The position numbers were made by a program, and so were the translations under genes. The notes beneath the pieces are model-generated. The model saw nothing but the letters and a program-made list of their open reading frames with translations, searched no databases and had not been told where the DNA came from. A stretch of DNA of 64,000 nt from Acutalibacteraceae bacterium (GTDB lineage: Bacteria > Bacillota > Clostridia > Oscillospirales > Acutalibacteraceae), in assembly GCA_045590395.1 (NCBI GenBank), contig JAZNQX010000063.1, forward strand, positions 5,135 to 69,134. The letters are read 5' to 3'. Positions 4,376-54,834 of the stretch are shown here, in pieces; positions within the stretch are counted from its first letter, which is position 1; every line of letters starts with the position of its first letter.

Positions 4376-4387
4376 AAAGGTAAAATA

Positions 4388-39510: not shown

Positions 39511-39586
39511 GATCCATTAGCTCAGCCGGTAGAGCACATGACTTTTAATCATGGTGTCCGGAGTTCGATTCTCCGATGGGTCACCA
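39511..39586 (+). tRNA. tRNA-Lys (anticodon UUU); CCA is encoded
   Basis: GATCCATTAGCTCAGCCGGTAGAGCACATGACTTTTAATCATGGTGTCCGGAGTTCGATTCTCCGATGGGTCACCA forms a clean cloverleaf with anticodon loop CTTTTAA. Confidence 0.95.
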
Positions 39587-39619
39587 AAACCCGAAGCAAA
39601 AGCTTCGGGTTTCTTTTTT
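39587..39619 (+). terminator. Intrinsic terminator after tRNA-Lys
   Basis: AAACCCGAAGC-AAAA-GCTTCGGGTTT followed by CTTTTTT. Confidence 0.75.
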
Positions 39620-39633
39620 GTTCGATAATAAAA

Positions 39634-39785
39634 CGGAGAATCGAACTCTGAGAGAGTGAGCGGCGTTAAGAAAACAGTTCGGTGAACTGTTTTTAGACGC
39701 GAAGTGTGAGACGGGTACTGTTCGCAAAGCGAACGGTCGTCGAGGACGGAATGTGCGAAGCTCATTCTTCTCCGATGGGTCACCA
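39634..39785 (+). repeat. tRNA-linked conserved module, Lys copy. Order: antisense T-arm fragment, hairpin+U-run, two-tier hairpin, exact 18-nt T-loop-to-CCA copy
   Basis: CGGAGAATCGAACTC (39634-39648) is the reverse complement of the tRNA-Lys T-arm. 39768-39785 is identical to 39569-39586. The internal blocks are shared with 8770-8931 on the minus strand. Confidence 0.6.
39696..39785 (+). other. 90-nt tRNA-Lys-like element / displaced tRNA-Lys 3' fragment ending in ...TTCTCCGATGGGTCACCA
   Basis: Same length and architecture as 8770-8859: a 5' heptamer (GACGCGA, 5/7 complementary to ATGGGTC), a 7-nt linker, the conserved hairpin at 39710-39741, a T-stem-like CGGAA/CTCCG around an 18-nt insert, an acceptor 3' strand and ACCA. 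Confidence 0.45.
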
Positions 39786-39786
39786 G

Positions 39787-39818
39787 AAAAAACGACTTGT
39801 TAAAACAAGTCGTTTTTT
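39787..39818 (+). terminator. Intrinsic terminator closing the tRNA-Lys-linked module
   Basis: AAAAAACGACTTGT-TAAA-ACAAGTCGTTTTTT. Confidence 0.7.
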
Positions 39819-39820
39819 AG

Positions 39821-39989
39821 TTATATTTGCCTACGGCAAGTTATATTGCTGTGCAGTTATATTCGGCTTACGCCGAGTGATATTGTGCTCCGCACAGTTT
39901 TATGGCAAATATAATATCACTAAAACCAAAGGTTTTAATATCACTTTTGACTTGTCAAAAATATCACTCCATCGAAGATGGAATATCAC
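39821..39989. repeat. Array of 7-mers (4x T[T/G]ATATT, then 4x the complement-orientation ATATCAC) that alternate exactly with unrelated short palindromes
   Basis: Right half: ATATCAC units at 39914, 39938, 39961 and 39983, separated with no spare bases by the palindromes TAAAACCAAAGGTTTTA, TTTTGACTTGTCAAAA and TCCATCGAAGATGGA. Left half: TTATATT at 39821, 39841 and 39857, and TGATATT at 39878, separated by shorter palindromes. Confidence 0.75.
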
Positions 39990-40088
39990 TGAGAGAGAAC
40001 AGCATCATTATGCAAATCATTGAAAAATATTGATTTGAGTTATCATTGATATAAAAAAACTGGTTTTAAAAATTTTTTCAAAAAACCC

Positions 40089-40117
40089 TTGACAACTTAA
40101 AAATATGGTGCTATACT
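40089..40117 (+). promoter_or_regulatory. Putative sigma-A promoter of T-box leader 1
   Basis: TTGACA, 17 nt, TATACT. Confidence 0.65.
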
Positions 40118-40136
40118 CTTTTCATACTTAATAAAA

Positions 40137-40400
40137 GCTGTGACGAAGACGGTCAAGAGTTTGTATTTTCAGAGAGCCGGTGGTTGCTGAAAACCGGTAA
40201 TAGAAATTCTTAAAAGACCCATCCCTTCCGAGCCGGAAGTCCGAAAGGTTATCCTAGTAGACGCTTCCCGTGATTGCTGCGTAAAGGCATAGGAATTGTT
40301 TGATTCCAAGAGTGGCGGAAAATTTCCGCAATTTGAGTGGTACCGCGAGTGTATTTTCACACCCGTCTCAAAGTTTCTTTGAGATGGGTGTTATTTTTTT
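40137..40400 (+). promoter_or_regulatory. T-box riboswitch leader 1; tentative specifier AUC (Ile) at 40221-40223
   Basis: K-turn base GCTGTGACGAAG...CTTCCGAGC, an AGAGAG bulge, the distal loop CCGGTGGTTGCTGAAAACCGG, the T-box AATTTGAGTGGTACCGCG (40330-40347), and a terminator at 40360-40390 plus a U-run. Confidence 0.9.
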
Positions 40401-40423
40401 AAAAACAGAAAGGGAGTAATTTT

Positions 40424-42691
40424 ATGAAAACCAATACTGCAAAAGAGCAACTATTAGAGATAGCTCTGCGAATTAGAGAAATGCGCGAGATTATGGGCTG
40501 GTCTATTGCAGAAATGGCTTCTAAAACGGAAGTCAGCGAGGAAAAATATATTTCTTACGAAAGTGCTGAAGCTGACATACCTTTTTCATTTATTCATAAG
40601 TGTGCATTGTGCTTTGATGTAGAGCTTACCGAGCTTTTAGAGGGACACTCTGCTCGTCTTTCAACCTATACTGTAACACGAAAGGGAAAGGGTCAGGCAA
40701 CCGCTAAAGAAGACGGCATCGATATTAAAAACCTTGCCCCTAAGTTCAGAGATAAAATTGCAGAGCCTTACTGGGTAAAATATGAATATTCTGCCGCTCA
40801 GCAAAATAAACCTATACAGCTTTCTACCCACTCGGGACAGGAATTTGACCTTATAATGAGCGGTTCTCTTAAGGTTCAGGTCGGAAATCATATTGAAATT
40901 TTAAACGAGGGCGACAGCATTTATTATAACAGCTCTACTCCTCACGGTATGATAGCTGTAGGCGGAAGTGACTGTGTTTTCTGTGCTGTTGTTCTTCCCG
41001 GCGAAGAAGTAAAGGAAGAAACGGTGCGTCGCAGTATTGTTTCTGCTAAAAATTCAGAAGCACTTGTTTGCGAAAAGTTCCTACAAACTACCGAAAACGA
41101 AAACGGCGAGCTTTTAGATATCAAATTTAAAAATACCGATGAATTCAACTTTGGCTTTGACATTGTTGACGGTATTGCAGATAAATATCCTGAAAAACTT
41201 GCTATGCTTCATATAGACAGAGAAAAGAAGGAAAGACGCTTTACCTTTAAGGATATAAAGCGTGCTTCTAATCAGTGCGCTAACTACTTTACTTCTCTCG
41301 GTATCAAGAGGGGAGATAAAGTAATGCTGGTGCTCAAACGTCATTATCAGTTCTGGTTCTGTATGGTGGCTCTTCACAAAATCGGCGCTGTGGCTATTCC
41401 TGCTACTAATCAGCTTAAAGAGCATGATTTTGAATACCGTTTCAATGCGGCAGGTGTTAACACCCTTGTTTGTACTGCCGACGGTGATACTGCAGAAATT
41501 GCCGAGCGCGCCGCCGCTAATTGTAAGAGCGTTAAAAACCTTGTGCTTGTTAACGGAAAACGCGAGGGTTGGCACGATTTTGACAGCGAATATAAACTGT
41601 TTTCGGGCAAATTTGAAAGAGAAGAAAACGCTTCAGCAGGTGAAGATACCGCCCTTATGTTCTTTACTTCGGGAACTACGGGTAATCCTAAAATGGCGGC
41701 TCATAAGCATACCTACGCTTTAGGCCATTTTGTTACCGCAAAATATTGGCATTGTTGCGAAAGAGACGGTTTACACCTTACTATTTCTGATACAGGTTGG
41801 GGTAAATCACTCTGGGGTAAGCTTTACGGTCAGTGGCTTTGCGAGGGCGCCGTATTTGTATACGACTTTGACCGCTTTGATGCAGATGAGATTCTGCCTA
41901 TGTTTGCAGAGTACAACATCACAACCTTCTGCGCACCTCCTACAATGCTTCGTATGCTTGTAAAGAGTGACCTTTCAAAATATGACCTTTCCTCAATCAA
42001 TCATATGACCACTGCAGGTGAGGCGCTGAATCCTGAAGTATTCCGTCAGTTTGAAGAAGCAACGGGACTTCAGATAATGGAGGGCTTCGGTCAGACCGAA
42101 ACTACCCTTACCATTGCAAACCTTTGCGGAACTACCCCCAAGGTTGGCGCTATGGGTAAGGCTTCTCCTCAGTATGATGTTGATATTGTTGACCTTGACG
42201 GTAATCCTGTTGCCGACGGTGAAGTAGGCGAAATAGTTGTTCATACTAAGGACGGCGTTCCCTGCGGACTGTTTAAAGAGTATTATCTTGACGAAGAAAA
42301 AACAAATGATGCTTGGCACGACGGTATGTACCATACAGGTGATACCGCTTGGCGAGATGAGGACGGATATTTCTGGTATGTAAGCCGTATTGATGATGTA
42401 ATTAAGTCTTCGGGTTACCGTATCGGACCCTTTGAAATTGAAAGCGTTATTATGGAACTTCCTTATGTTCTTGAATGCGGTGTATCTGCTGCACCCGACG
42501 AAGTAAGAGGTCAGGTTGTAAAGGCAAGTATCGTACTTGTTCCCGGAACCGCTCCTACAGAAGAGCTTAAGAAAGAAATCCAAAACTATGTAAAAGAGCA
42601 TACCGCACCTTACAAATATCCGAGAATAGTTGTGTTTAAGGACGAACTTCCCAAAACTATTAGCGGAAAAATTCAGCGAAATAAACTGTAA
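40424..42691 (+). CDS. Fusion protein: N-terminal XRE-type HTH + cupin domain (about aa 1-200) joined to an AMP-forming medium/short-chain acyl-CoA synthetase (ACSM/MACS-like)
   Basis: 755 aa. HTH: LRIREMREIMGWSIAEMASKTEVSEEKYISYE. Cupin: GQEFDLIMSGSLKVQVG...GDSIYYNSSTPHGM. ANL motifs: FFTSGTTGNPKMAAH, SDTGWGK, GFGQTE, YHTGDTAWRDEDGYFWYVSRIDDVIKSSGYRIGPFEIE and SGKIQR. Confidence 0.85.
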   Translation: MKTNTAKEQLLEIALRIREMREIMGWSIAEMASKTEVSEEKYISYESAEADIPFSFIHKCALCFDVELTELLEGHSARLSTYTVTRKGKGQATAKEDGIDIKNLAPKFRDKIAEPYWVKYEYSAAQQNKPIQLSTHSGQEFDLIMSGSLKVQVGNHIEILNEGDSIYYNSSTPHGMIAVGGSDCVFCAVVLPGEEVKEETVRRSIVSAKNSEALVCEKFLQTTENENGELLDIKFKNTDEFNFGFDIVDGIADKYPEKLAMLHIDREKKERRFTFKDIKRASNQCANYFTSLGIKRGDKVMLVLKRHYQFWFCMVALHKIGAVAIPATNQLKEHDFEYRFNAAGVNTLVCTADGDTAEIAERAAANCKSVKNLVLVNGKREGWHDFDSEYKLFSGKFEREENASAGEDTALMFFTSGTTGNPKMAAHKHTYALGHFVTAKYWHCCERDGLHLTISDTGWGKSLWGKLYGQWLCEGAVFVYDFDRFDADEILPMFAEYNITTFCAPPTMLRMLVKSDLSKYDLSSINHMTTAGEALNPEVFRQFEEATGLQIMEGFGQTETTLTIANLCGTTPKVGAMGKASPQYDVDIVDLDGNPVADGEVGEIVVHTKDGVPCGLFKEYYLDEEKTNDAWHDGMYHTGDTAWRDEDGYFWYVSRIDDVIKSSGYRIGPFEIESVIMELPYVLECGVSAAPDEVRGQVVKASIVLVPGTAPTEELKKEIQNYVKEHTAPYKYPRIVVFKDELPKTISGKIQRNKL

Positions 42692-42712
42692 TGTTAATTT
42701 TATCTTTAAATA

Positions 42713-42741
42713 TTGACAATATTCCAAAGTTGTGATACAAT
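42713..42741 (+). promoter_or_regulatory. Putative sigma-A promoter of T-box leader 2 (extended -10)
   Basis: TTGACA, 17 nt, (TGa)TACAAT. The -35 lies inside the near-palindrome AATATTGACAATATT. Confidence 0.6.
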
Positions 42742-42756
42742 AAGACGGATATTAAA

Positions 42757-43019
42757 GGCTTTGACGAAGAGTGCGCTTAATTCTTCCTTGCAGAGAAACG
42801 GTGGTTGGTGAAAACCGTTAGGTTGGAATTTTGTGTTTGTAGCTTCTGAGCCGGGGAGAAGAAAGTATTTAATATCAGTAGAACTCCTCCGTGATTGCTG
42901 CGTTAATGCATAGGAATTGTTAGATTCCAAGAGTGGCGGATTTCCGCAATTTGAGTGGTACCGCGGGTGTGAATATCGGCACTCGTCTCAAAGGCATTAC
43001 TTTGGGACGGGTGTTTTTT
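42757..43019 (+). promoter_or_regulatory. T-box riboswitch leader 2; putative specifier GUA (Val) at 42839-42841
   Basis: GGCTTTGACGAAG...CTTCTGAGCC K-turn helix, AGAGAA bulge, distal loop ACGGTGGTTGGTGAAAACCGT, T-box AATTTGAGTGGTACCGCG (42948-42965), and a terminator at 42980-43013 plus a U-run. Confidence 0.9.
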
Positions 43020-43047
43020 ACGTCCTAACGGAAATGGAGATAAACTT

Positions 43048-45336
43048 ATGGAACAGATTACAGGGCTTGATTTTAAAATCAAGGAAATGGCGGGGCGTAT
43101 CAGAGAGCTTCGCGAAATCGAAGGCTTAACAACGGAACAAATGGCAGAAAAAACCGCTGTTTCGGTGGCTGAGTATATAGAATGTGAAAATGGCAACAGT
43201 GACTTAAACTTTGCCTTTATTTACCGTTGCGCACTTGCTCTTAACGTAAATGTTACCGATATTATTGAGGGTTACAGCCCTACACTTAAATCATATACCG
43301 TTACCCGTGCAGGCTCAGGCCAGAAAATTGCACAGGCTCACGGTATGACCTATTATAACCTTGCTTATGCGTTTAAAAACCGTATTGCCGAGCCTCTTTA
43401 TGTTCGCAGTATATACAGTGAAGAAGCGCAGTCAAGGGATATTGAGCTAACTACCCACGCCGGTCAGGAGCTTGATATAATTATTGAAGGTCAGCTTATG
43501 GTTCAGGTAGGCGAGCATAAGGAAATACTGGGCCCCGGGGACAGCATTTACTATGACAGTGACGTTGCCCACGGTATGATAGCAATAGGCGGTAAGGACT
43601 GTCTTTTCTACGCTATTGTTTTAAACCCCACAGGTGAGCCTATTCCCGAGCTTTTACCCGCTAAAACTATTCTTGAGCCTAAAGCGGTTAAAAAGGATAA
43701 TAAAGAAAGAGTATACCATAAATATATAGATGTTACCGAGAACGATAACGGTACACCTGTTTCTGTAAAGTTTAAAAATACCGATAAATTCAATTTCGGT
43801 TTCGATGTTGTTGATGAAATTGCTCACAAAAGCCCTGAAAAACGTGCAATGCTTCATATATCAAGGGACGGTACAGAGCGTAGCTTTACCTTTAAGGATA
43901 TTGAAAAAGCTTCTAACCAGTGCGCCAACTACTTTAAATCTCTTGGTATTAAAAAGGGCGACCGCGTTATGTTGGTGCTTAAACGCCATTATCAGTTTTG
44001 GTTCTCAATTATTGCACTTAATAAGCTGGGTGCCATAGCTATACCTGCTACAAATCAACTTGTTGAACACGATTTTGATTACCGCTTTAAATCTGCAGGT
44101 GTTAGTACAATTATCTGTACTGCAGATGGTGATACAGCATATCAGGCTGAGAAAGCTGCTGAGAATAATCCTCAGCTTGTAAACAAGCTTATAGTTAATG
44201 GAGCGCGTGAAGGTTGGAGAAGCTTTGACGAGGAATATATCCTTTACAGCACCCACTATAAGCGTACCGAGGATACCGCCTGCGGTGACGATTTAATGCT
44301 TATGTACTTTACTTCGGGTACATCGGGCTATCCCAAAATTGCCGCACACAGCTATAAGTATCCTCTCGGACACTTCCATACTGCAAAATATTGGCACTGT
44401 GTTGACCCTGACGGACTTCACTTTACAATATCTGATACAGGCTGGGCAAAGGCTACCTGGGGCAAAATTTACGGTCAGTGGCTTTGCGAGGCAGGTATAT
44501 TCGTTTATGATTTTGACCGCTTTGATGCTGCAGAAATACTGCCCATGTTTGCAAAGCACAATATAACCACCTTCTGTGCTCCTCCTACAATGCTCCGTAT
44601 GCTTATAAAGCAGGATATAGCACAATATGATTTTTCCTCTGTTAAGCATATGACAACGGCAGGTGAGGCGCTTAATCCCGAGGTTTACCGTCAGTTTGAA
44701 AAAATTACAGGGCTTCAGATTCTCGAGGGCTTCGGCCAGACCGAAAGCACTATGATTATCGGTAATATGACGGGCGCACCCCATAAAATAGGTTCTATGG
44801 GTAAACCTGCACCTATATACGATGTTCATATTGTAGATAGCGATGGCAAAGATGTTCCTGCAGGTGAAACAGGTGAAATCGTTATAAATATTGAAAACGG
44901 TCTTCCTTGCGGACTGGCTACCTGTTACTACGGTGATGAAGAAAAAACAAAAGAAACCTGGCGCGACGGTTATTACCATACAGGAGATACCGCTTGGCGT
45001 GATGAAGACGGCTTCTACTGGTATGTAGGTCGCGTTGACGATGTTATTAAGTCTTCGGGCTACAGAATTGGGCCTTTCGAAATAGAAAGTGTTATTATGG
45101 AGCTTCCCTTCGTTCTTGAGTGCGGTGTATCTGCTGCACCGGATGAAGTAAGAGGTCAGGTTGTAAAGGCAAGTATTGTACTTGTTCCCGGAACCGAGCC
45201 TTCAGAAGAACTAAAGAAACAAATCCAGAAATATGTTAAGGATAAGACTGCACCTTATAAATATCCTCGTATAGTAGTATTTAAAGATAGTCTTCCTAAA
45301 ACTACCAGCGGAAAAATTCAAAGAAATAAGTTATAA
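43048..45336 (+). CDS. Paralogous fusion protein: XRE-type HTH + cupin joined to an AMP-forming acyl-CoA synthetase (ACSM/MACS-like)
   Basis: 762 aa with the same architecture as 40424-42691. The C-terminal roughly 120 aa are nearly identical to the paralogue, while the N-terminal sensor part and the middle of the synthetase are clearly diverged. Confidence 0.85.
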   Translation: MEQITGLDFKIKEMAGRIRELREIEGLTTEQMAEKTAVSVAEYIECENGNSDLNFAFIYRCALALNVNVTDIIEGYSPTLKSYTVTRAGSGQKIAQAHGMTYYNLAYAFKNRIAEPLYVRSIYSEEAQSRDIELTTHAGQELDIIIEGQLMVQVGEHKEILGPGDSIYYDSDVAHGMIAIGGKDCLFYAIVLNPTGEPIPELLPAKTILEPKAVKKDNKERVYHKYIDVTENDNGTPVSVKFKNTDKFNFGFDVVDEIAHKSPEKRAMLHISRDGTERSFTFKDIEKASNQCANYFKSLGIKKGDRVMLVLKRHYQFWFSIIALNKLGAIAIPATNQLVEHDFDYRFKSAGVSTIICTADGDTAYQAEKAAENNPQLVNKLIVNGAREGWRSFDEEYILYSTHYKRTEDTACGDDLMLMYFTSGTSGYPKIAAHSYKYPLGHFHTAKYWHCVDPDGLHFTISDTGWAKATWGKIYGQWLCEAGIFVYDFDRFDAAEILPMFAKHNITTFCAPPTMLRMLIKQDIAQYDFSSVKHMTTAGEALNPEVYRQFEKITGLQILEGFGQTESTMIIGNMTGAPHKIGSMGKPAPIYDVHIVDSDGKDVPAGETGEIVINIENGLPCGLATCYYGDEEKTKETWRDGYYHTGDTAWRDEDGFYWYVGRVDDVIKSSGYRIGPFEIESVIMELPFVLECGVSAAPDEVRGQVVKASIVLVPGTEPSEELKKQIQKYVKDKTAPYKYPRIVVFKDSLPKTTSGKIQRNKL

Positions 45337-45360
45337 TTAAAGGAAAGGCAGGCGAGTATT

Positions 45361-46026
45361 ATGATAGGTAAAAAAAGACTTACGCTTTTTTGCGGACATT
45401 ACGGAAGCGGTAAAACAAATATAGCCGTTAATGTTGCAATTAAGCTTAAAGAGAGCTATAATAATATCGCCCTTGCTGACCTTGACATAGTAAATCCTTA
45501 TTTCAGAACAAAGGACAGCAGTGAAGAGCTTAAAAGCAAGGGTATAAGGCTTATCTGTTCTGAGTATGCAAACTCTAATGTAGATATTCCGGCTCTCCCA
45601 CAGGATGTGTACGCCATTACCGATGATAAAACACTTAAATGTGTACTTGATATCGGCGGTGATGACAGAGGAGCACTGGTTCTGGGCAGAATTTCGGATA
45701 AAATTTCAGAGGAAAATGACTTCGAAATGCTTATGGTTATAAATTCGTTTCGTCCCTTAACCAGAGATACCGAGTCTTTAATAGAGGTTTTTTCTGAAAT
45801 AGAGGCTGCGGCAAAAATTAAATTTACAGGCCTTGTTAACAATTCAAACCTTGGTGAAGAAACCACGGCAGAGGATGTTTTAAGCTCTGTCAACTATGCT
45901 AATGATATATCAAAAGCCACAGGCCTTCCTGTAGTTATGACCTGTGTAAAAGAAGACCTGTATGAGTCTTTAAAGGACAAGATACCTAATCTTTTGGGAC
46001 TTAAACTGCAGAAGAAAATTTTGTAG
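45361..46026 (+). CDS. P-loop NTPase of unknown function (SIMIBI-like; Walker A GHYGSGKT)
   Basis: 221 aa: FCGHYGSGKTNIAVNVA, DLDIVNPYFR and GGDDRG. It sits between the acyl-CoA synthetase and the oxidoreductase genes. Confidence 0.6.
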   Translation: MIGKKRLTLFCGHYGSGKTNIAVNVAIKLKESYNNIALADLDIVNPYFRTKDSSEELKSKGIRLICSEYANSNVDIPALPQDVYAITDDKTLKCVLDIGGDDRGALVLGRISDKISEENDFEMLMVINSFRPLTRDTESLIEVFSEIEAAAKIKFTGLVNNSNLGEETTAEDVLSSVNYANDISKATGLPVVMTCVKEDLYESLKDKIPNLLGLKLQKKIL

Positions 46027-46082
46027 ATTCCACAAATTAAATTTGTGCCTTCGAATATATAATTTGCTAAGGAGTGTTTATT

Positions 46083-46289
46083 TTGGCAAAATTAACATTT
46101 AAAACCGACAACTGTAAGGGTTGCGGCCTTTGCGTAGATGCCTGTCCCAAGCAGGTACTTATTCTCGCAAATGACAAAATCAACAAAAAGGGACATCACC
46201 CTGTAGAAGCGGCAAATATTGACGCTTGTATTGGCTGTGCTTTCTGTGCAACAATGTGTCCTGACTGTATCATTAAGGTAGAAAGGTAG
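46083..46289 (+). CDS. 2-oxoacid:ferredoxin oxidoreductase delta subunit (2x[4Fe-4S] ferredoxin)
   Basis: Two CxxCxxCxxxCP motifs (CKGCGLCVDACP, CIGCAFCATMCP). The TTG at 46083 lies 8 nt after AAGGAG and is preferred over the ORF-track GTG, which overlaps the RBS. Confidence 0.8.
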   Translation: MAKLTFKTDNCKGCGLCVDACPKQVLILANDKINKKGHHPVEAANIDACIGCAFCATMCPDCIIKVER

Positions 46290-47362
46290 TGAGTAAAGTG
46301 GCAGATAAAGTTTTGATGAAGGGTAACGAAGCTATTGCCGAAGCCGCTATTGTTGCAGGCTGTCGTCATTACTTCGGTTATCCTATAACTCCCCAGACAG
46401 AAATTGCCGCTTATATGGCAAAACGTATGCCCAAAATCGGCGGAACCTTCCTTCAGGCTGAAAGTGAAATCGCCGCTATCAATATGGTATACGGCGTTGC
46501 TTCTACCGGTAAGCGTGTTATGACCTCTTCTTCAAGCCCCGGAGTTTCCCTTAAGGGTGAAGGCCTTTCTTATATTGCAGGTGCTGACCTTCCGTCCCTT
46601 ATAGTAAACGTTCAGCGCGGTGGCCCCGGCCTTGGCGGTATTCAGCCCTCTCAGTCTGACTATTTTCAGGCTACAAAGGCAGGCGGACACGGCGACTTTA
46701 AAATGATAGTTCTTGCCCCCGCCTCTGTTCAGGAAATGGCTGACCTTACTGTTAAGGGCTTTGAACTCGCTGACAAATACCGTATGACATCTATGATTCT
46801 TGCCGACGGTACTATGGGACAGATGATGGAGCCTGTTTCTCTCGATTTTGAGGTATCAGAGAAAATAGATAAGCCCTGGGCTACCACAGGAACCAAAATG
46901 GAGCGCGAGCATAATATTGTTAACTCTCTTTTCCTTGTTCCCGAAGAACTTGAAAAATCAAACTTTGAGCGTTTTGAACGCTATAAGTACATAGAGGAAA
47001 ACGAAACCATGTGGGAAGAGTATCTTATGGACGATGCAGAAATTTGTATTGCCGCATTCGGTATTGCCGCCCGTGTTTCTAAAAACGCTATAAATGAGGC
47101 AAGAAAGCAGGGTATTAAGGTTGGTCTTATCCGTCCTATTACTCTCTGGCCTTTCCCCACAAAAGCATTTAAAGAGGCTGCCGAAAAGGTAAGCAGTATT
47201 ATATCTGTTGAGCTTTCTATGGGACAGATGATAGAGGACGTTCGTCTTGCAAGTGAGAGCAAGGTTCCCGTAACCCTTTGCAACCGTGCAGGCGGTATGA
47301 TTCCTTCTCCCGAACAAGTACTCGACGCAATTAAAGAAGCAGCAAAAGGAGGCGCAAAATAA
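46289..47362 (+). CDS. 2-oxoacid:ferredoxin oxidoreductase alpha subunit (VorB/KorA type)
   Basis: 357 aa: LMKGNEAIAEAAIVAGCRHYFGYPITPQTEI is typical of the OFOR alpha N-terminus. Confidence 0.88.
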   Translation: MSKVADKVLMKGNEAIAEAAIVAGCRHYFGYPITPQTEIAAYMAKRMPKIGGTFLQAESEIAAINMVYGVASTGKRVMTSSSSPGVSLKGEGLSYIAGADLPSLIVNVQRGGPGLGGIQPSQSDYFQATKAGGHGDFKMIVLAPASVQEMADLTVKGFELADKYRMTSMILADGTMGQMMEPVSLDFEVSEKIDKPWATTGTKMEREHNIVNSLFLVPEELEKSNFERFERYKYIEENETMWEEYLMDDAEICIAAFGIAARVSKNAINEARKQGIKVGLIRPITLWPFPTKAFKEAAEKVSSIISVELSMGQMIEDVRLASESKVPVTLCNRAGGMIPSPEQVLDAIKEAAKGGAK

Positions 47363-48117
47363 TGGTAGTTTTTGATAAACCGCATGCACTTACCGATGTG
47401 CCTATGCATTATTGCCCCGGCTGTACTCACGGTATTGTTCACCGTCTTGTTGCTGAGGTTATTGACGAACTCGGTATTGAGGGCAAAACCATTGGTATAG
47501 CCCCTGTTGGCTGTTCCGTTATGGCGTATAATTATTTCGGTTGTGATATGATAGAGGCCGCTCATGGACGCGCACCTGCCGTTGCTACAGGTGTTAAGCG
47601 CGCTGACCCTGAAAATCATATAGTATTTACCTATCAGGGTGACGGTGACCTTGCTTCTATCGGTATGGCAGAAACCGTACACAGTGCCGCAAGAAATGAA
47701 AACATAACCGTTATATTCATTAACAATGCTATATACGGTATGACAGGCGGACAGATGGCTCCGACCTCTCTTCCCGGTCAGGTAACACAGACCTCACCCT
47801 ACGGCAGAGATGTAAACCATTGCGGCTATCCCGTTAAGGTTTGTGAAATGCTCTCAAAGCTTGACGGCCCTGAGTATCTCGAAAGAGTCACAGTTAACAA
47901 TGTTAAAAATGTAAAGAACGCTAAGAAGGCAATTAAAAAGGCTTTCCAGAATCAGATAGACGGTAAGGGATTTTCTCTTGTTGAGGTTGTGTCAAGTTGT
48001 CCTACCAACTGGGGTATGACACCAAAACAGGCACTTGAGTGGATTGACGAGAAAATGATTCCTTATTATCCGCTTGGCGTTTATAAAGACAGAAGCGCAG
48101 AAAAGGGGGAAGAATAA
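47362..48117 (+). CDS. 2-oxoacid:ferredoxin oxidoreductase beta subunit (TPP-binding)
   Basis: YCPGCTHG and the TPP motif GDGD...NNAIYGMTGGQ. Confidence 0.88.
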   Translation: MVVFDKPHALTDVPMHYCPGCTHGIVHRLVAEVIDELGIEGKTIGIAPVGCSVMAYNYFGCDMIEAAHGRAPAVATGVKRADPENHIVFTYQGDGDLASIGMAETVHSAARNENITVIFINNAIYGMTGGQMAPTSLPGQVTQTSPYGRDVNHCGYPVKVCEMLSKLDGPEYLERVTVNNVKNVKNAKKAIKKAFQNQIDGKGFSLVEVVSSCPTNWGMTPKQALEWIDEKMIPYYPLGVYKDRSAEKGEE

Positions 48118-48650
48118 TGGCTACTAAACAGTTTTTGTTTTCGGGATTTGGCGGTCAGGGTATTCTTTTCGCCGGTAAGTTTATGGCTTATAAAGGCCTT
48201 ATTGATGATAAGCAGGTAAGCTGGCTTCCGTCATACGGCCCCGAAATGCGCGGCGGTACAGCAAGCTGTAGCGTAATTGTCAGTGACGAGCCCGTGGGTT
48301 CTCCCATAGTATCAAAACCTGATGTGCTTATCGCTATGAATCTTCCTTCTCTTGATAAATATGAGTCTACCGTAAAGAAAGGCGGTATGATTTTCCTTGA
48401 CTCAACCCTTATTGAGCGCAAGGTAGAAAGAGATGACGTTAAGGTTTTCTATATTCCTGCCACAAAGCTGGCAAGTGATAATAATATGCCTACCCTTGCT
48501 AATATGATTATAGTAGGTAAGGTATTAAGTGAACTTAACGATTTCCAAAAAGAAAGCGTTGACGCTGCTCTTTCAAAGGTTATTTCTGCAAAACGTGCAG
48601 ATATGGCTGATATAAACCGCAAGGCTATGCAGATAGGCGCTGAAAACTAA
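48117..48650 (+). CDS. 2-oxoacid:ferredoxin oxidoreductase gamma subunit
   Basis: [14 protein letters not shown]...[10 protein letters not shown]. Confidence 0.85.
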
Positions 48651-48671
48651 TCTTAAGGAGAATTAAGGAAT

Positions 48672-49736
48672 ATGAATATTTCTATTACTAAAACTGCCTG
48701 TCCTAAAGAAAAACCCGACAGCAGTGTACTGGGCTTTGGAAAATATTTTACCGACCATATGTTTATGATGGATTATTCAAGAGATAAGGGTTGGTATAAT
48801 GCAAGAATTGTTCCCTTTGAGAATATTTCTTTGCATCCTGCCTCTACTGTTCTTCATTACGGCAGTGAGATTTTTGAGGGCCTTAAGGCTTATAGACGCA
48901 AAGACGGTAAGGTACAGCTTTTCCGTCCTATAGAGAATATCCGTCGTATGAACAGCTCTGCAGAAAGACTTTGTCTGCCTCAGATTCCTGAAGAGGACGC
49001 TATGCAGGCTCTTAAAACCTTTGTCGCTTTAGAGCAGGACTGGACTCCCTCTGCGGCAGGTACTTCACTTTATCTTCGTCCCTTTATGTTCGGTAATGAC
49101 GAAACCTTAGGTGTTCACGCTGTACATAACGCAACCTTTGTTATTATTGCTTCACCTGTAGGCAGCTACTATAAAGAGGGCATTAACCCGGTTAAAATTA
49201 TGATAGAAGACCAGGATGTTCGTGCTGTGCGCGGAGGTACCGGTTATGCTAAATGTGGCGGTAACTATGCAGCAAGTAACAGAGCAGGTGAGCGCGCTGA
49301 ACAGCAGGGCTATTCACAGGTACTCTGGCTTGATGGTGTTGAGAGAAAGTATATTGAAGAGGTTGGCGCTATGAACGTAATGTTCAAAATCAACGGCGAA
49401 ATCGTTACTCCTATGCTTTCGGGCTCAATTCTCCCCGGTATTACAAGAAAATCCTGCCTTGAGGTGCTAAGAAGCGAGGGCTATAAGGTAAGTGAAAGAC
49501 TGCTTAGCATTGATGAGCTTGAAGAGGCTATGAACAACGGTACTCTTGAAGAGGCTTGGGGTTGCGGAACTGCTGCTGTAGTTTCTCCTATTGGTGAACT
49601 TTGCTACAAGGGTGTAAAGCACCAGGTTAGCGGCGGCAAAATCGGTGAAGTTACTCAGCACCTTTACGATACCCTTACATCTATTCAGTGGGGTAATGCT
49701 GAGGATAAGTTCAACTGGACCGAGCAAATCGACTAA
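48672..49736 (+). CDS. ilvE: Branched-chain amino acid aminotransferase (fold type IV)
   Basis: 354 aa: HYGSEIFEGLKAYR, LYLRPFMFG, GGTGYAKCGGNYA and GITR. Confidence 0.92.
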   Translation: MNISITKTACPKEKPDSSVLGFGKYFTDHMFMMDYSRDKGWYNARIVPFENISLHPASTVLHYGSEIFEGLKAYRRKDGKVQLFRPIENIRRMNSSAERLCLPQIPEEDAMQALKTFVALEQDWTPSAAGTSLYLRPFMFGNDETLGVHAVHNATFVIIASPVGSYYKEGINPVKIMIEDQDVRAVRGGTGYAKCGGNYAASNRAGERAEQQGYSQVLWLDGVERKYIEEVGAMNVMFKINGEIVTPMLSGSILPGITRKSCLEVLRSEGYKVSERLLSIDELEEAMNNGTLEEAWGCGTAAVVSPIGELCYKGVKHQVSGGKIGEVTQHLYDTLTSIQWGNAEDKFNWTEQID

Positions 49737-49750
49737 TTTTAAAAAAGTGG

Positions 49751-49779
49751 TTGACAAACTAAAATTGCGGTGATATAAT
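49751..49779 (+). promoter_or_regulatory. Putative sigma-A promoter of T-box leader 3 (extended -10)
   Basis: TTGACA, 17 nt, (TGa)TATAAT. Confidence 0.65.
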
Positions 49780-49796
49780 TATCTCAAATTTTTAAA

Positions 49797-50049
49797 TGCG
49801 ATGAAGGAATTATTCTTTATATGCGCTTGTTTTCAGAGAGTCGGCGGTTGGTGAGAGCCGATACGGTAGTATAAAGTAAGTCTCGTTCCGGAGCAGAACT
49901 GCTGAAACACAGTAAGCGGTTACGGCGTGCCCCGTTATCATGGCAAAAGGCTTGTTGGAGCCTTACTGAGTGACCGTTTATACGGTAATTAGGGTGGTAC
50001 CGCGAATATTATTCGTCCCTGAAACTATTATGGTTTCAGGGGCTTTTTA
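49797..50049 (+). promoter_or_regulatory. T-box riboswitch leader 3; putative specifier CUC (Leu) at 49882-49884
   Basis: TGCGATGAAGGAA...TTCCGGAGCA K-turn helix, AGAGAG bulge, distal loop TCGGCGGTTGGTGAGAGCCGA, T-box AATTAGGGTGGTACCGCG (49987-50004), and the terminator CCCTGAAAC...GTTTCAGGG plus a U-run. Confidence 0.9.
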
Positions 50050-50079
50050 TTTGTTTTAGTTTAGAAAGGAAGAATTATT

Positions 50080-51459
50080 ATGAGAAAAGTAAGAATTGCA
50101 GATACAACTCTTTGCAGTGGTGAAGTAAGCTACAGTTTCAAGGAAAAAATTGAAATTGCAAGACAGCTTGAAAATCTAAAAATTGATATAATAGAGCTTG
50201 GCGCTATTGAAAACGCAAGAACTGATATTTTACTTGTAAAAACTATTTCTTCTTTTGTTAAATCAGGTATCCTCTCTGTTGCAGGCGGTATGACAAAAGA
50301 AAGCATAGACAATGCTGCCTCCGCGCTTTCAAATGCGGTTAATAAAAGGATAAGAATTGAACTTCCCGTGTCCCCCGTGGGTATGGAATATGTTTGTCAT
50401 AAAAAGCCTGATAAAATGCTTCCCTTTATTGAATCTCTTGTTGGTGCCGCAAAAGAAAGGGTAGAGGATGTCGAGTTCTGTGCCATTGATGCTACCCGTG
50501 CTGAAGAAGACTTTCTTAAATCTGCCATCAAAACTGCTGTAAATGCCGGTGCTACATCGGTTTCGGTTTATGACAGCGCCGCAGAAACAATGCTGCCCGA
50601 TGAGTTTGCTGATTTTGCCCGTAAGGTTTGCAAAAAGGCAGATGTAGAGGTTGGCGCATTTTGCGATAACAAAAACGGTATGGCAGTAGCCGATGCCGTA
50701 CTTGCTGTAAGAAATGGTGTTTCTGTTGTTAAGACAGCAGTAGGTACAGGTGCCGTTCCTCTTGAAACCTTTGCAGAAATGATAAATAACTGCGGTAATT
50801 CCTTTGGTATATATGCAGATATAAATTATACAAATTTACACCGTATTATAAAACAGATAAACTGGGTTAAAGAAAACTCAAAGGATGGCAAAAACAGTGT
50901 AAGCAGTGAAAGTATAGATAATACCGTCGCTCTTGACAAAGATTCTGATCGCACCGCTGTTGCTACTGCAGTGCTGAAACTCGGCTATGATTTAAGTGAT
51001 GAGGACAGCGGTAAGGTTTATGATGAATTTGTGCGTGTGGCAGAAAAGAAAAATGTTGGCTATAAAGAGCTTGATGCTATAGTTGCAAGCGTAGCCTTGC
51101 AGGTTCCTGCCACATATAAGCTTATCAATTATGTTGTAAACACAGGTAATATTATTTCTTCAAGCTCTCAGGTTGCCCTTGAAAAAGAAGGCAAAACCTA
51201 TCAGGGTGTTTCTATCGGTAGCGGTCCTATTGATGCGGCTTTCCTTGCTATTGAGCAGATAATAGGAACCCATTTTGAACTGGATGATTTCCAGATTCAG
51301 TCGGTAACAGAAGGTAAAGAGGCTATGGGTAGCGCTCTTGTAAAACTGAGAGCAAACGGAAAGCTTTATTCGGGTAACGGTATTTCCACCGACATTATAG
51401 GCGCAAGTATTCGCGCATATCTTAGTGCTGTAAACAAGATAGTTTACGAGGAGGCATAA
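50080..51459 (+). CDS. 2-isopropylmalate synthase (LeuA/HMGL) homologue with substituted catalytic residues but a retained C-terminal LeuA regulatory domain
   Basis: 459 aa. DTTLCSGE replaces DTTLRDGEQ, AFCDNKNG replaces VHCHNDLG, DSAA replaces DTVG, and GTGAVPLE replaces GIGERAGN. The C-terminal GSGPIDAAFLAIEQI...GKEAMGSALVKL is the LeuA_dimer/R domain. Confidence 0.75.
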   Translation: MRKVRIADTTLCSGEVSYSFKEKIEIARQLENLKIDIIELGAIENARTDILLVKTISSFVKSGILSVAGGMTKESIDNAASALSNAVNKRIRIELPVSPVGMEYVCHKKPDKMLPFIESLVGAAKERVEDVEFCAIDATRAEEDFLKSAIKTAVNAGATSVSVYDSAAETMLPDEFADFARKVCKKADVEVGAFCDNKNGMAVADAVLAVRNGVSVVKTAVGTGAVPLETFAEMINNCGNSFGIYADINYTNLHRIIKQINWVKENSKDGKNSVSSESIDNTVALDKDSDRTAVATAVLKLGYDLSDEDSGKVYDEFVRVAEKKNVGYKELDAIVASVALQVPATYKLINYVVNTGNIISSSSQVALEKEGKTYQGVSIGSGPIDAAFLAIEQIIGTHFELDDFQIQSVTEGKEAMGSALVKLRANGKLYSGNGISTDIIGASIRAYLSAVNKIVYEEA

Positions 51460-51461
51460 AA

Positions 51462-53966
51462 ATGAAATTCTCTTTTTCTACAAAAGGATGGCATAATATA
51501 TCCTTTGAAGAATTTTGTGAAATAGCAAAAGACCTTAAGTTTGAGGGAATTGAACTTCATAATATAAATAATCCTCTTTTTACTGATAAGGACGGCGCTT
51601 TTCACGAGCATACAGCGGCAGGAACAATAAGAAAGCTTTACGAAAAGAAGCTTTCTTTACCCTGCATTGATACTATTTGCAATATAGCAGATAATGATGA
51701 ATTTGATAAAAGCGTGGATGAAATTCTTGCCTGTATTGATATTGCAAAGCGCCTTAAAATACCCTTTATAAGACTTCACGCCGGTATGGCAGAGGATATC
51801 GAAAAGGCTACAGCCTGCGTGGTTTCTATTATTGAAAAAACCATATCCGATGCCGAGGAAAACGGGGTTACATTGCTTCTTGAAACCTCGGGTATCTTCT
51901 CTAATACCGAGATTCTCAGAGATACTCTTGAACTCTTTGCAAGTGATAGTCTTGCGGCTTCGCTTGATATGTATTCTGCATATTTCATAGGTAAAGAAGA
52001 TGCTGAACAGATTATTAAAAATCTGGGTGCTTATGTAAAACACGTTCATGTAAGGGACGCGCAAAAAGTTAACGGTAAATTGGAAAATTGTCTTATCGGT
52101 GAGGGCGAAATGCCTATTAACGATATGATGCTGGCTCTTCGCAGTGTAAATTATGACGGATATTTCTCACTGATATGGGACCCCTCATGGTGTGAGGAGC
52201 TTGACGATATGGAGATTATATTCTCTCATTTTGTCAACTTTATGAAGCAGTATGGTGATATTTCTAAAAACGAAACTACACTTTACTACAACAAAACTCA
52301 TACGGGAAAATTTGTGTGGAAAAAGGATTTACTTATTGACCTTACCTTCCCACAGGTGCTTGACAGAATGGCAGAGGAATTTCCTGACCAGTATGCATTT
52401 AAGTACACCACCCTTGATTATACCCGTACCTACAGCCAGTTCAGAGATGACGTTGATACCTTTGCCAGAGCCCTTGTTTCTATGGGCGTAAAGGCAGGTA
52501 CCAAGGTAGCTGTATGGGCTTCGAATGTGCCTCAGTGGTATATTTCCTTCTGGGCGGCTACAAAAATAGGTGCCGTACTTGTTACGGTTAACACCGCTTA
52601 TAAAATTCACGAGGCTGAGTATCTGCTTAAGCAGTCGGATACCCATACCCTTATTATGACTCAGGGAAGCAAGGATACAAACTACGGCGAAATTATAGCC
52701 CGTCTTTGTCCTGAGCTTGAAACTATGAAGTCAGGAAGCGCTCTTCACAGCAAAAAACTTCCTTTCCTTCGTAATGTAATTACCGTAGGCTTTAAACAGA
52801 AGGGCTGTATGACCTGGAATGACGCCTTGGCACGTTCTATTGATACCCCTGTGGAAGAGGTTTACAGAATGGCGGCGGCTGTTGATAAGGACGACGTTTG
52901 TAATATGCAGTATACTTCGGGTACTACAGGATTTCCTAAGGGTGTTATGCTTACTCACTATAATGTTGTAAATAACGGAAAGTATATCGGCGACCATATG
53001 GATCTTTCTACCGCAGACAGAATGATGATACAGGTGCCTATGTTCCATTGCTTTGGTATGGTACTTTCTATGACCGCGTCTATGACTCATGGTACAACTA
53101 TGTATCCTATGCCGTATTTTTCACCAAAGCCTTCTCTCGCTTGTGTTCATAATGACCATTTTCCCGCCTTTATCGGCGTACCTACCATGTTTATTGCTAT
53201 GATGCAGCACCCTGATTTTGAAAAAACCGACTTTTCTTATATGCGTGTGGGCATTATGGCGGGCTCTAACTGTCCTGCCGACCTTATGAAACAGGCAACA
53301 GAGGTTATGAATATGAAGGAAATTGTATCTGTTTACGGTCAGACCGAAGCGTCACCCGGTTGCACTATGAGTAGCTGGTATGATTCTCTTGAGGTTAGAA
53401 CCGAAACCGTAGGCAGCGCATTTGCTAATGTTGAGTGTAAGATAATCGACCCCGAAACAGGGGAGGACTGCCCTGACGGAGTTAACGGTGAGTTTGTTGC
53501 CCGTGGCTATAATATAATGAAGGGCTATTATAAAATGCCTAAGGCTACAGCGGCGGCTATTGATAAGGACGGTTGGCTTCACACAGGCGACCTAGCTTGC
53601 AGACGCCCTGACGGAAACTATCTTATAACAGGTCGTCTTAAGGATATGATTATCAGAGGCGGAGAAAACATTTATCCTAAGGAAATTGAGGAATTTATAT
53701 TCACTAATCCTAAGGTAAGTGATGTTCAGGTTATAGGTGTTCCCGATAAGCAGTACGGCGAAGAAATTATGGCCTGTATTATTCTTAAAGAGGGCGAAAC
53801 TATGACCGAAGAAGAAATAAAGGGTTATATTTCCGCCAATATGGCGCGTCATAAGGTTCCTCGCTATATTGATTTTGTAGATAAGTTCCCAATGAATGCG
53901 GCAGGTAAAATACTTAAGTACAAAATGAGAGAGGAAGCCGCCAAAAAACTGGGACTTGATGAGTAA
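51462..53966 (+). CDS. Fusion protein: xylose-isomerase-like TIM barrel (sugar phosphate isomerase/epimerase family, about aa 1-270) joined to an AMP-dependent acyl-CoA synthetase/ligase
   Basis: 834 aa. The N-terminus has FEGIELHN...LLLET...HVHVRD TIM-barrel features. The C-terminus has YTSGTTGFPKGVMLTH, VYGQTEASP, TGDLACRRPDGNYLITGRLKDMIIRGGENIYPKEIE and AGKILK. Confidence 0.8.
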   Translation: MKFSFSTKGWHNISFEEFCEIAKDLKFEGIELHNINNPLFTDKDGAFHEHTAAGTIRKLYEKKLSLPCIDTICNIADNDEFDKSVDEILACIDIAKRLKIPFIRLHAGMAEDIEKATACVVSIIEKTISDAEENGVTLLLETSGIFSNTEILRDTLELFASDSLAASLDMYSAYFIGKEDAEQIIKNLGAYVKHVHVRDAQKVNGKLENCLIGEGEMPINDMMLALRSVNYDGYFSLIWDPSWCEELDDMEIIFSHFVNFMKQYGDISKNETTLYYNKTHTGKFVWKKDLLIDLTFPQVLDRMAEEFPDQYAFKYTTLDYTRTYSQFRDDVDTFARALVSMGVKAGTKVAVWASNVPQWYISFWAATKIGAVLVTVNTAYKIHEAEYLLKQSDTHTLIMTQGSKDTNYGEIIARLCPELETMKSGSALHSKKLPFLRNVITVGFKQKGCMTWNDALARSIDTPVEEVYRMAAAVDKDDVCNMQYTSGTTGFPKGVMLTHYNVVNNGKYIGDHMDLSTADRMMIQVPMFHCFGMVLSMTASMTHGTTMYPMPYFSPKPSLACVHNDHFPAFIGVPTMFIAMMQHPDFEKTDFSYMRVGIMAGSNCPADLMKQATEVMNMKEIVSVYGQTEASPGCTMSSWYDSLEVRTETVGSAFANVECKIIDPETGEDCPDGVNGEFVARGYNIMKGYYKMPKATAAAIDKDGWLHTGDLACRRPDGNYLITGRLKDMIIRGGENIYPKEIEEFIFTNPKVSDVQVIGVPDKQYGEEIMACIILKEGETMTEEEIKGYISANMARHKVPRYIDFVDKFPMNAAGKILKYKMREEAAKKLGLDE

Positions 53967-53969
53967 TCG

Positions 53970-54785: not shown

Positions 54786-54790
54786 GGCAG

Positions 54791-54834
54791 AAAAGCCGCG
54801 AAGTAAAAAAACTTCGCGGCTTTTTTATTTTTTT
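54791..54834 (+). terminator. Strong intrinsic terminator closing the Leu-T-box operon
   Basis: AAAAGCCGCGAAGT-AAAAAA-ACTTCGCGGCTTTT followed by TTATTTTTTT. Confidence 0.85.

Follow-up and report, generated by a model that had tools for sequence, protein, structure and literature searches.

A three-unit T-box array of uncultured gut Clostridia with a probable role in making branched-chain amino acids from branched short-chain fatty acids

Organisation of the locus

The window analysed here is the whole stretch of 64,000 nucleotides from an Acutalibacteraceae bacterium (contig JAZNQX010000063.1, positions 5,135 to 69,134). The system in question is an array of 11 genes and three T-box leaders in one 14.7-kb block, which encodes acyl-coenzyme A (acyl-CoA) synthetases, a P-loop NTPase, a four-subunit 2-oxoacid:ferredoxin oxidoreductase (OFOR), a branched-chain aminotransferase (IlvE) and further proteins. 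The cluster is probably an anabolic salvage regulon, in which valine, isoleucine and leucine would be made from the branched short-chain fatty acids of the gut and rumen. With about 41% G+C and every large gene on the + strand, the window is a chromosome segment of Clostridia type; it also holds genes of sporulation and cell division (spoVD, murE, mraY, ftsW/spoVE, murG), leuS and housekeeping genes. Features of the array are all on the + strand.

The block at 40089-54826 is an array of three attenuator-controlled units with a single terminator at its end, because promoters abut the three leaders and the strongest intrinsic terminators of the 16-kb region are the three T-box terminators and the one at 54789-54826 (16-bp stem, then a T run). 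Of the sigma-70-like promoters in the same region, the three best lie directly 5' of the T-box leaders, each with an extended -10 TG. They are found at 40089-40117 for unit 1 (TTGACA-17-TATACT, 11/12 match), at 42713-42741 for unit 2 (11/12 match) and at 49751-49779 for unit 3 (12/12 match). No terminator comparable to that at 54789-54826 was found by the terminator scan of the 16-kb region after 42691, the end of the first synthetase gene, or after 49736, the end of ilvE. As the genes of the OFOR and IlvE stand behind no leader but that for Val, and no strong terminator follows 42691 or 49736, some read-through and basal expression must serve Ile and Leu.

Relatives were collected by a scan of one genome per GTDB species, in which at least 596 species had a relative of the synthetase. 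A promoter of like shape precedes unit 1 in 49 of 57 orthologous loci, the promoter of unit 2 is kept in 75 of 83 loci and that of unit 3 in 23 of 31. Conservation around the three promoters, compared over about 23-75 loci for each unit, is limited to the A-tract, the -35 and the extended -10, and no conserved palindrome that could be a helix-turn-helix (HTH) operator was found.

T-box leaders and their specifiers

All three leaders score above the gathering score (93 bits) of the Rfam T-box family RF00230. The Ile leader extends from 40131 to 40391 (Rfam match 40131-40373, 99.6 bits; terminator 40359-40391), the Val leader from 42752 to 43015 (match 42752-42993, 95.6 bits; terminator 42978-43015) and the Leu leader from 49792 to 50043 (match 49792-50023, 133.3 bits; terminator 50015-50043). 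The conserved T-box sequence with the UGGN bulge, GGUGGUACCGCG, is found in all three. The terminators starting at 40359, 42978 and 50015 carry T runs and are mutually exclusive with the antiterminator, as in T-boxes. The specifiers AUC, GUA and CUC are located 1 nt before the basal helix; they were read from the cmscan alignment, and a rule-based parse (K-turn helix, specifier, GAGC) gave the same codons. The base 3' of the specifier is C, G and G, respectively, instead of the usual A, which is often found in the orthologs. The putative Val T-box that an earlier note on this DNA had placed ahead of the gene at 43048 is thereby confirmed, with specifier GUA and with a terminator and a promoter of its own.

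T-boxes activate their genes in response to the uncharged cognate tRNA, and the targets known for them boost amino-acid supply. The three leaders are predicted to respond to uncharged tRNA-Ile, tRNA-Val and tRNA-Leu. About 80 species of uncultured Oscillospirales from gut and rumen keep the same pairing of codon and gene. Leaders of the Ile-type synthetase genes have ATC in 47 of 54 orthologs, those of the Val-type genes have GTA or GTC in 60 of 76 (the remainder were not parsable), and unit 3 leaders have CTC or CTG in 17 of 23. The GUA T-box is still present in nine of the ten cases checked in which the ortholog of the Val-type gene lies far from any OFOR.

HTH-cupin acyl-CoA synthetases

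Unit 1 encodes the Ile-type synthetase (40424-42691, 755 aa) and unit 2 begins with the Val-type synthetase (43048-45336, 762 aa). Both are fusions in which the Pfam domains HTH_19 and Cupin_2 precede AMP-binding and AMP-binding_C, and they share 64% identity over their full length, HTH-cupin part included. The Val-type protein had been described as an ACSM-like acyl-CoA synthetase; it is an acyl-CoA synthetase but not a plain ACSM-like one, its N-terminal extension of about 245 residues being made of an XRE-type HTH and a cupin.

The catalytic domain of the Val-type protein matches PDB 3ETC (MacsMa) with 599 bits and 50% identity over 520 residues, and this is its best solved relative by a wide margin. 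MacsMa, from Methanosarcina acetivorans, has 2-methylbutyrate as its preferred substrate; its pocket is lined by an alternate Trp, Trp259, and has Gly where Acs has the Trp of its acetate pocket (PMC10455477). The Gly (Gly563) and the alternate Trp (Trp449) are both invariant here, and together with the AMP-binding and C-terminal domains they are the features of Macs/MbcS-type ANL enzymes. The best NCBIfam model for both synthetases is MbcS (NF047394), with 428 bits for the Val-type and 439 bits for the Ile-type protein, under the equivalog cutoff of 850; judged by these scores, they are relatives of MbcS and not equivalogs. In S. aureus, MbcS supports branched-chain fatty acid synthesis by activating short branched carboxylic acids (PMC10026030). 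By sequence, the synthetase is closest to the two characterised short branched-chain acyl-CoA synthetases, MacsMa and MbcS. The Val-type synthetase is proposed to be an isobutyrate-CoA ligase and the Ile-type a 2-methylbutyrate-CoA ligase.

A comparison of 83 Val-type with 57 Ile-type sequences found only 16 positions that are fixed differently, of which 11 fall within residues 54-117, in the HTH/cupin region, and five in the catalytic part. Two of the five fall within the motif DTGW-x-K-x-x-W, which we take to correspond to acyl-pocket residues of Acs. The residue after the Trp of DTGW is Ala (Ala467) in the Val-type (DTGW-A-K) and Gly in the Ile-type (DTGW-G-K) and in MacsMa. This difference is suggestive: it would fit a slightly smaller pocket for a C4 acid, as the T-box codons predict. 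The concentration of 11 of the 16 discriminating residues in the HTH/cupin part (encoded at 43048-43780 and 40424-41150) suggests that this sensor domain has a ligand or partner specific to each paralog. An AlphaFold2 model of the HTH-cupin region had a predicted local distance difference test (pLDDT) value of 52, too poor for a fold search, and was not used.

The kinship with MbcS raises another possibility: the synthetases could supply branched acyl-CoA primers for membrane fatty acids, with the OFOR and IlvE working oxidatively from branched-chain amino acid (BCAA) through 2-oxo acid to acyl-CoA primer. OFORs are reversible, and acyl-CoA products could serve both fates. The best NCBIfam model is moreover that of an enzyme whose role is primer supply (PMC10026030, PMC11167679). 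Induction by uncharged tRNA-Ile, tRNA-Val or tRNA-Leu is nevertheless the opposite of what a BCAA-consuming pathway needs. No fab gene or plsX adjoins the cluster in the window, the plsX at 27410-28405 being more than 11 kb upstream of unit 1, and neither was seen within the cluster gene order in the orthologous loci. Primer supply is therefore an unlikely purpose of the array.

OFOR subunits and IlvE

In unit 2 the synthetase gene is followed by the gene of the P-loop NTPase, those of the OFOR subunits delta (46083-46289; likely start TTG at 46083, 68 aa), alpha (46298-47362; likely start GTG at 46298, 354 aa), beta (47362-48117) and gamma (48117-48650), and ilvE (48672-49736). The four-subunit composition read earlier from the open reading frames is upheld by the domains of each subunit, and all cofactor motifs are intact in alpha, beta and delta. 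The delta subunit is ferredoxin-like, with two CxxCxxCxxxCP motifs for two [4Fe-4S] clusters (Pfam Fer4 families), and its gene has a Shine-Dalgarno sequence. The alpha subunit has POR_N, PFOR_II and a YPITP motif. The beta subunit (Pfam TPP_enzyme_C) has the thiamine pyrophosphate motif GDGD..NN and Cys18, 21, 51 and 213 for a [4Fe-4S] cluster, and the gamma subunit has the Pfam POR domain (119.5 bits). Start/stop overlaps had been listed at 46289, 47362 and 48117. The latter two are present, each as a TAATG stop/start, whereas the first is a longest-open-reading-frame artefact: the Shine-Dalgarno sequence, the NCBIfam profile register and the lengths of orthologs place an 8-nt gap between delta and alpha. 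The remaining intergenic gaps in unit 2 are of 8-56 nt, with Shine-Dalgarno sequences.

NF005507, the NCBIfam model of VorB (3-methyl-2-oxobutanoate dehydrogenase subunit), matches the alpha subunit end to end with 547.7 bits (cutoff 399). Alpha stays under the cutoffs of the models for KorA-type enzymes (320 bits, cutoff 411) and for OorA (250 bits, cutoff 579), and also under those of the PorA and Pyrococcus-type 2-oxoisovalerate:ferredoxin oxidoreductase (VOR, EC 1.2.7.7) alpha models. IlvE, of the class IV fold and type II, exceeds both equivalog cutoffs (NF009897, 483 bits, cutoff 307; TIGR01123, 402 bits, cutoff 250), so that the branched-chain aminotransferase claimed for the end of the unit stands.

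The P-loop NTPase

The gene at 45361-46026 encodes a protein of 221 aa that belongs to an uncharacterised family of SIMIBI-class P-loop NTPases. Its identification as a P-loop NTPase, made earlier from the sequence, is borne out by a Walker A motif, GHYGSGKT, and by the SIMIBI fold of its AlphaFold2 model (pLDDT 85.6). Further conserved motifs are ADLDIVNPYFR, D-GGDDRGA and NNSNLG. There is a weak Pfam match to CbiA; no NCBIfam family and no relevant PDB sequence were matched, the best being three CodY chains (E about 0.015, 18 bits). The nearest structures found by Foldseek are ATPase-type HypB and signal recognition particle GTPases, with template modelling (TM) scores of only about 0.5. A role as a NifH-like ATP-driven electron donor was considered and rejected, as no invariant Cys pair is found across 68 orthologs.

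In an exhaustive profile search, the family has about 770-1900 representative clusters, 773 of them at E<=1e-30; nearly all those listed are stand-alone proteins of about 220 aa. Among the top 150 representatives (141-307 aa, mostly 215-235) there is no informative domain fusion. Three remoter members that could be placed on contigs (185-190 bits to the family profile, the best scoring 387) are encoded directly upstream of an OFOR delta gene, at 3825-4499 in locus L084, 8001-8663 in L085 and 8001-8678 in L088. The full delta-alpha-beta-gamma order is resolved in L088, the sole one of the three with enough downstream sequence. No synthetase, IlvE or T-box was found near these three loci, whose neighbours are, for example, ispD/ispF or a sigma-54 activator. 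Because distant members also precede an OFOR delta gene where BCAA genes are lacking, the NTPase is a constant companion of this type of OFOR, independent of the BCAA context. It most likely acts in assembly or cofactor insertion, or as a fifth subunit, and seems to be a fifth component of such OFORs that has not been described.

Its fold class is that of the SIMIBI assembly NTPases (ATPase-type HypB, CooC, Mrp/ApbC), and like them it adjoins a metalloenzyme operon. It differs from them in the low TM score, in an identity of 15-20% and in having no conserved metal-binding Cys pair.

The Leu unit

Three tightly spaced genes follow the third T-box. The first (50080-51459) encodes a protein with the Pfam domains HMGL-like and LeuA_dimer, which resembles 2-isopropylmalate synthase (IPMS) and is named in databases as hypothetical, as "IPMS regulatory domain-containing" or as IPMS. 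That it is a true IPMS was rejected, its catalytic residues being replaced and its scores lying under every IPMS cutoff. Aligned to the solved enzymes 3EWB and 3RMJ, the protein has DTTLCSGE for DTTLRDGEQ, with four residues deleted, F-C-D for the metal ligands HxH and Ile for the catalytic Glu. The HxH and the R-D pair are lost in 30 of 30 orthologs; the catalytic Glu is lost in most and retained in four. The C-terminal LeuA regulatory domain is kept (Pfam E = 4.9e-31). On these residues, the protein reads as a conserved pseudo-enzyme, and it is proposed to be a leucine-sensing, non-catalytic partner of the adjacent ligase. This would parallel the HTH-cupin domains of the two synthetases, in which the group-specific residues are concentrated in the sensor part.

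The second gene (51462-53966) encodes a fusion of a TIM barrel to an acyl-CoA ligase (Pfam AP_endonuc_2, AMP-binding, AMP-binding_C). The ligase part is FadD/ACSF2-like (PRK12583, 644 bits, cutoff 832), and the fusion is proposed to be an isovalerate-CoA ligase. The TIM barrel, encoded at 51462-52270, is xylose-isomerase-like and poorly conserved in this fused copy. Stand-alone paralogs with intact E/D-H/H/E motifs are encoded between the P-loop and delta genes in loci L001-L003 (13005-13802 in L001) and between two HTH-cupin synthetase genes in L007 (8564-9514) and L063 (8512-9462).

The third gene (53970-54785) encodes a metal-dependent enzyme of the Amidohydro_2 family (Pfam PF04909, 115 bits), which is well conserved and keeps the HxH..H..D ligands. 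Its gene stands directly after that of OFOR gamma in L079 (about 17489) and L050 (about 13099). The TIM barrel and the Amidohydro_2 protein have weak PDB sequence matches to Art22, MJ1311, BB4693 and ACMSD-type decarboxylases; for the Amidohydro_2 protein, the closest relatives of solved structure are an uncharacterised protein from Bordetella and reversible ACMSD-type decarboxylases. Both proteins belong to the cluster system, because TIM paralogs recur inside the cluster in other species.

Conservation and synteny

Each of the best 80 species in the scan is an uncultured member of the Clostridia from gut or rumen. Acutalibacteraceae, Oscillospiraceae and Ruminococcaceae are among the families represented, and the hosts are human, goat, sheep, yak, deer and horse. 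The closest synthetase match among them is 81% identical, the species of the window itself not being included, and the synthetase family is very abundant in metagenomes.

Synteny was established by tblastn of the window proteins onto the loci of these species. The P-loop NTPase and all four OFOR subunits follow the synthetase in 39 of the 47 loci with enough downstream sequence, the Ile-type paralog lies upstream in 52 of 64 loci, and unit 3 lies no more than 10 kb away in 16 of 25. The arrangement of the units varies from species to species: unit 3 may be downstream, upstream or divergent, and ilvE sometimes comes directly after the synthetase gene. As the units remain linked despite this shuffling, their association is the signature of a functional module and not of chance. 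The 64-kb window contains no ilvBNCD or leuBCD, which says little about the rest of the genome.

Proposed pathway and its direction

Under the salvage reading, uncharged tRNA-Val (GUA), tRNA-Ile (AUC) or tRNA-Leu (CUC) would stabilise the antiterminator of its leader and let transcription proceed into a dedicated AMP-forming synthetase gene. The Val-type synthetase would convert isobutyrate, and the Ile-type 2-methylbutyrate, to the CoA ester, while the ligase of the Leu unit probably activates isovalerate; activation of an acid would cost 2 ATP equivalents. The shared OFOR, with reduced ferredoxin and CO2, would carboxylate the acyl-CoAs to 2-oxoisovalerate, 2-oxo-3-methylvalerate and 2-oxoisocaproate, which IlvE would transaminate to valine, isoleucine and leucine. 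The P-loop NTPase would be an accessory of the OFOR (assembly, cofactor insertion or fifth subunit), and feedback control is probably added by the HTH-cupin domains and the dead IPMS-like protein, acting as sensors of ligands.

The earlier note had proposed this sequence of activation, carboxylation and transamination under a sensor of uncharged tRNA, with substrates taken from context. The order fits all the computed evidence. It now has sequence support as well: the kinship of the synthetase with MacsMa and MbcS, the Ile, Val and Leu specifiers that each gate a synthetase of their own in a conserved pairing, and the VorB match of alpha. Substrates and direction of the OFOR are still drawn from context. 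The description of unit 2 as a complete route holds only together with the Ile and Leu units on either side, the latter of which has extra proteins.

To our knowledge, no sequence signature of OFOR direction exists. We infer from the context that the enzyme runs in the carboxylating direction, and that it is specific for branched substrates from the VorB naming and the very consistent BCAA context. The anabolic direction is by far the most coherent reading, because the T-boxes switch the genes on when tRNA is uncharged and because the ligases drive thioester formation: the synthetases are AMP-forming ANL enzymes, and AMP-forming ligases drive toward the thioester. A catabolic reading, or one limited to lipid primers, conflicts with the cluster because of the T-box regulation. 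The carriers are gut and rumen Clostridia, whose habitat is rich in branched short-chain acids, and this fits salvage.

The combination of IlvE with a VOR is also the classical oxidative route of proteolytic Clostridia and Thermococcales, and on that ground the array might serve Stickland-type catabolism, in which energy is gained by oxidising BCAAs to branched acids. Routes that conserve energy rely on ADP-forming synthetases or ptb/buk, whereas the ligases found here are AMP-forming; T-box control means induction by starvation; and three substrate-specialised ligases would make no sense for the excretion of acids. A Stickland-type function is accordingly very improbable.

Several results weigh against anabolic salvage. 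The beta, gamma and delta subunits reach no NCBIfam cutoff and are not placed in VOR families, and the best-scoring models for beta and delta, both below cutoff, are those of 2-oxoglutarate enzymes. The nearest PDB sequences to alpha and beta are the 2-oxoglutarate:ferredoxin oxidoreductases 8YS5 and 6N2N and the Pyrococcus 2-keto acid OFOR 1YD7. The unit of P-loop NTPase and OFOR occurs elsewhere without BCAA genes, so that the OFOR family is not intrinsically BCAA-specific. With OFOR and IlvE behind the Val leader only, neither would be induced by a shortage of just Ile or just Leu. The Leu-unit ligase is a member of another ANL subfamily and carries no sequence pointer to isovalerate, and its unit holds three proteins that the simple scheme does not need.

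Because alpha passes the VorB cutoff and the nearest structures of alpha and beta are 2-oxoglutarate enzymes, the OFOR can be placed in a KOR-like branch, in a subfamily named after the anabolic VOR of Methanothermobacter. The same structures and sub-cutoff models, together with the occurrence of the P-loop/OFOR unit in BCAA-unrelated contexts, would agree with a 2-oxoglutarate synthase or oxidoreductase that feeds the glutamate/2-oxoglutarate pair to IlvE, the conversion of acyl-CoA to 2-oxo acid then being done by an enzyme elsewhere or never. This is improbable: alpha is over the VorB cutoff and under those of KorA and OorA, the cluster has no succinyl-CoA-forming enzyme, and the three T-box-gated synthetases could not lead to amino acids if the carboxylating step were missing.

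Anabolic salvage may be extended to a bolder proposal, which is conceivable and for the present rather doubtful. The array would be the main or only source of valine, isoleucine and leucine in a large uncultured clade of Oscillospirales, with one riboswitch per amino acid, sensor-fused synthetases, a dead IPMS as leucine sensor, a P-loop NTPase required by the OFOR or for its reverse operation, and the TIM barrel and amidohydrolase in a novel step.

Relation to known systems and significance

Isotope work of the 1960s-80s by Allison, Bryant, Robinson, Peel and others reportedly established that isobutyrate, 2-methylbutyrate and isovalerate are reductively carboxylated to valine, isoleucine and leucine in rumen bacteria and methanogens. 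The substrates, products and chemistry (acyl-CoA, CO2 and a low-potential reductant) proposed here are the same, as is the habitat. That work defined a physiology, whereas the present analysis concerns a widely conserved gene set with a riboswitch per amino acid and with extra, unpredicted proteins. For methanogens, the reductive carboxylation of branched acids has been reviewed (PMC10658910).

Among characterised enzymes, the anabolic 2-oxoisovalerate:ferredoxin oxidoreductase VorABC of Methanothermobacter, said to have been described by Tersteegen et al. in 1997, is presumably the namesake of NF005507 (PRK07119). The alpha subunit found here matches the VorB profile, and an anabolic role is assigned to both systems; the present one differs in being bacterial, in having four separate subunits and in its obligatorily linked P-loop NTPase. 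The synthetases share with MacsMa the Gly for Trp and the alternate Trp, at 50% identity, and have MbcS as their best NCBIfam model; they differ from these enzymes in the score below the MbcS cutoff, in the HTH-cupin extension, in being duplicate paralogs specific to different T-boxes and in the Ala/Gly difference of the pocket. The T-box ilv-leu operon and the BCAA tRNA-synthetase genes of Bacillus and Clostridia have the same class of riboswitch, with CUC, AUC and GUA specifiers ahead of genes for BCAA supply. In contrast to the ilv-leu operon, the array has three leaders in a row and encodes proposed enzymes of fatty-acid salvage, not those of the acetolactate and isopropylmalate steps.

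The cluster of T-box, synthetase, VOR and IlvE, the HTH-cupin fusion, the P-loop partner and the dead IPMS were not found described in the literature searchable in full text (the scope of the search, which left subscription literature outside). In the same literature, no paper contains both "BCVFA" (branched-chain volatile fatty acid) and "ferredoxin oxidoreductase", and none ties the BCVFA requirement to OFOR genes or to a defined operon. The biochemistry, which is classical, and the enzyme families are known; the organisation, with its several uncharacterised accessory proteins, is apparently new.

Branched-chain volatile fatty acids are long-known growth factors of fibre-degrading rumen bacteria and are fed to dairy cattle. 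The cluster would supply a candidate genetic basis for this 60-year-old observation of rumen nutrition. As a gene set labelled by riboswitches, it would make the trait predictable from genomes and metagenomes, and automated reconstructions that call the carriers BCAA auxotrophs, or the dead IPMS LeuA, could be corrected. It suggests medium supplements for culturing the uncultured Acutalibacteraceae and Oscillospiraceae that carry it, offers enzymes for testing (the Ala/Gly pocket switch, the P-loop partner of the OFOR) and would add a cross-feeding link between proteolytic and saccharolytic gut bacteria.

Surroundings upstream of the array

Immediately upstream of the array lies leuS (37001-39409). 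In Firmicutes, this gene is often under T-box control; in the window, no T-box that exceeds the gathering score was reported ahead of it. Between leuS and unit 1, the 3' end of a tRNA-Lys gene (TTCTCCGATGGGTCACCA, 39569-39589) recurs 199 nt downstream, at 39768-39788. Such a repeat is typical of the att-site scar left by an element integrated at a tRNA gene. At 39634-39648, 15 nt of the T-arm region recur as a perfect copy in inverted orientation. Two sub-threshold matches to the Gut-1 RNA motif (RF01706; gathering score 50 bits) lie between tRNA-Lys and the Ile T-box in opposite orientations, at 39818-39888 (+; 45.5 bits) and 39909-39991 (-; 44.6 bits), with E about 1e-7 in a 681-nt search.

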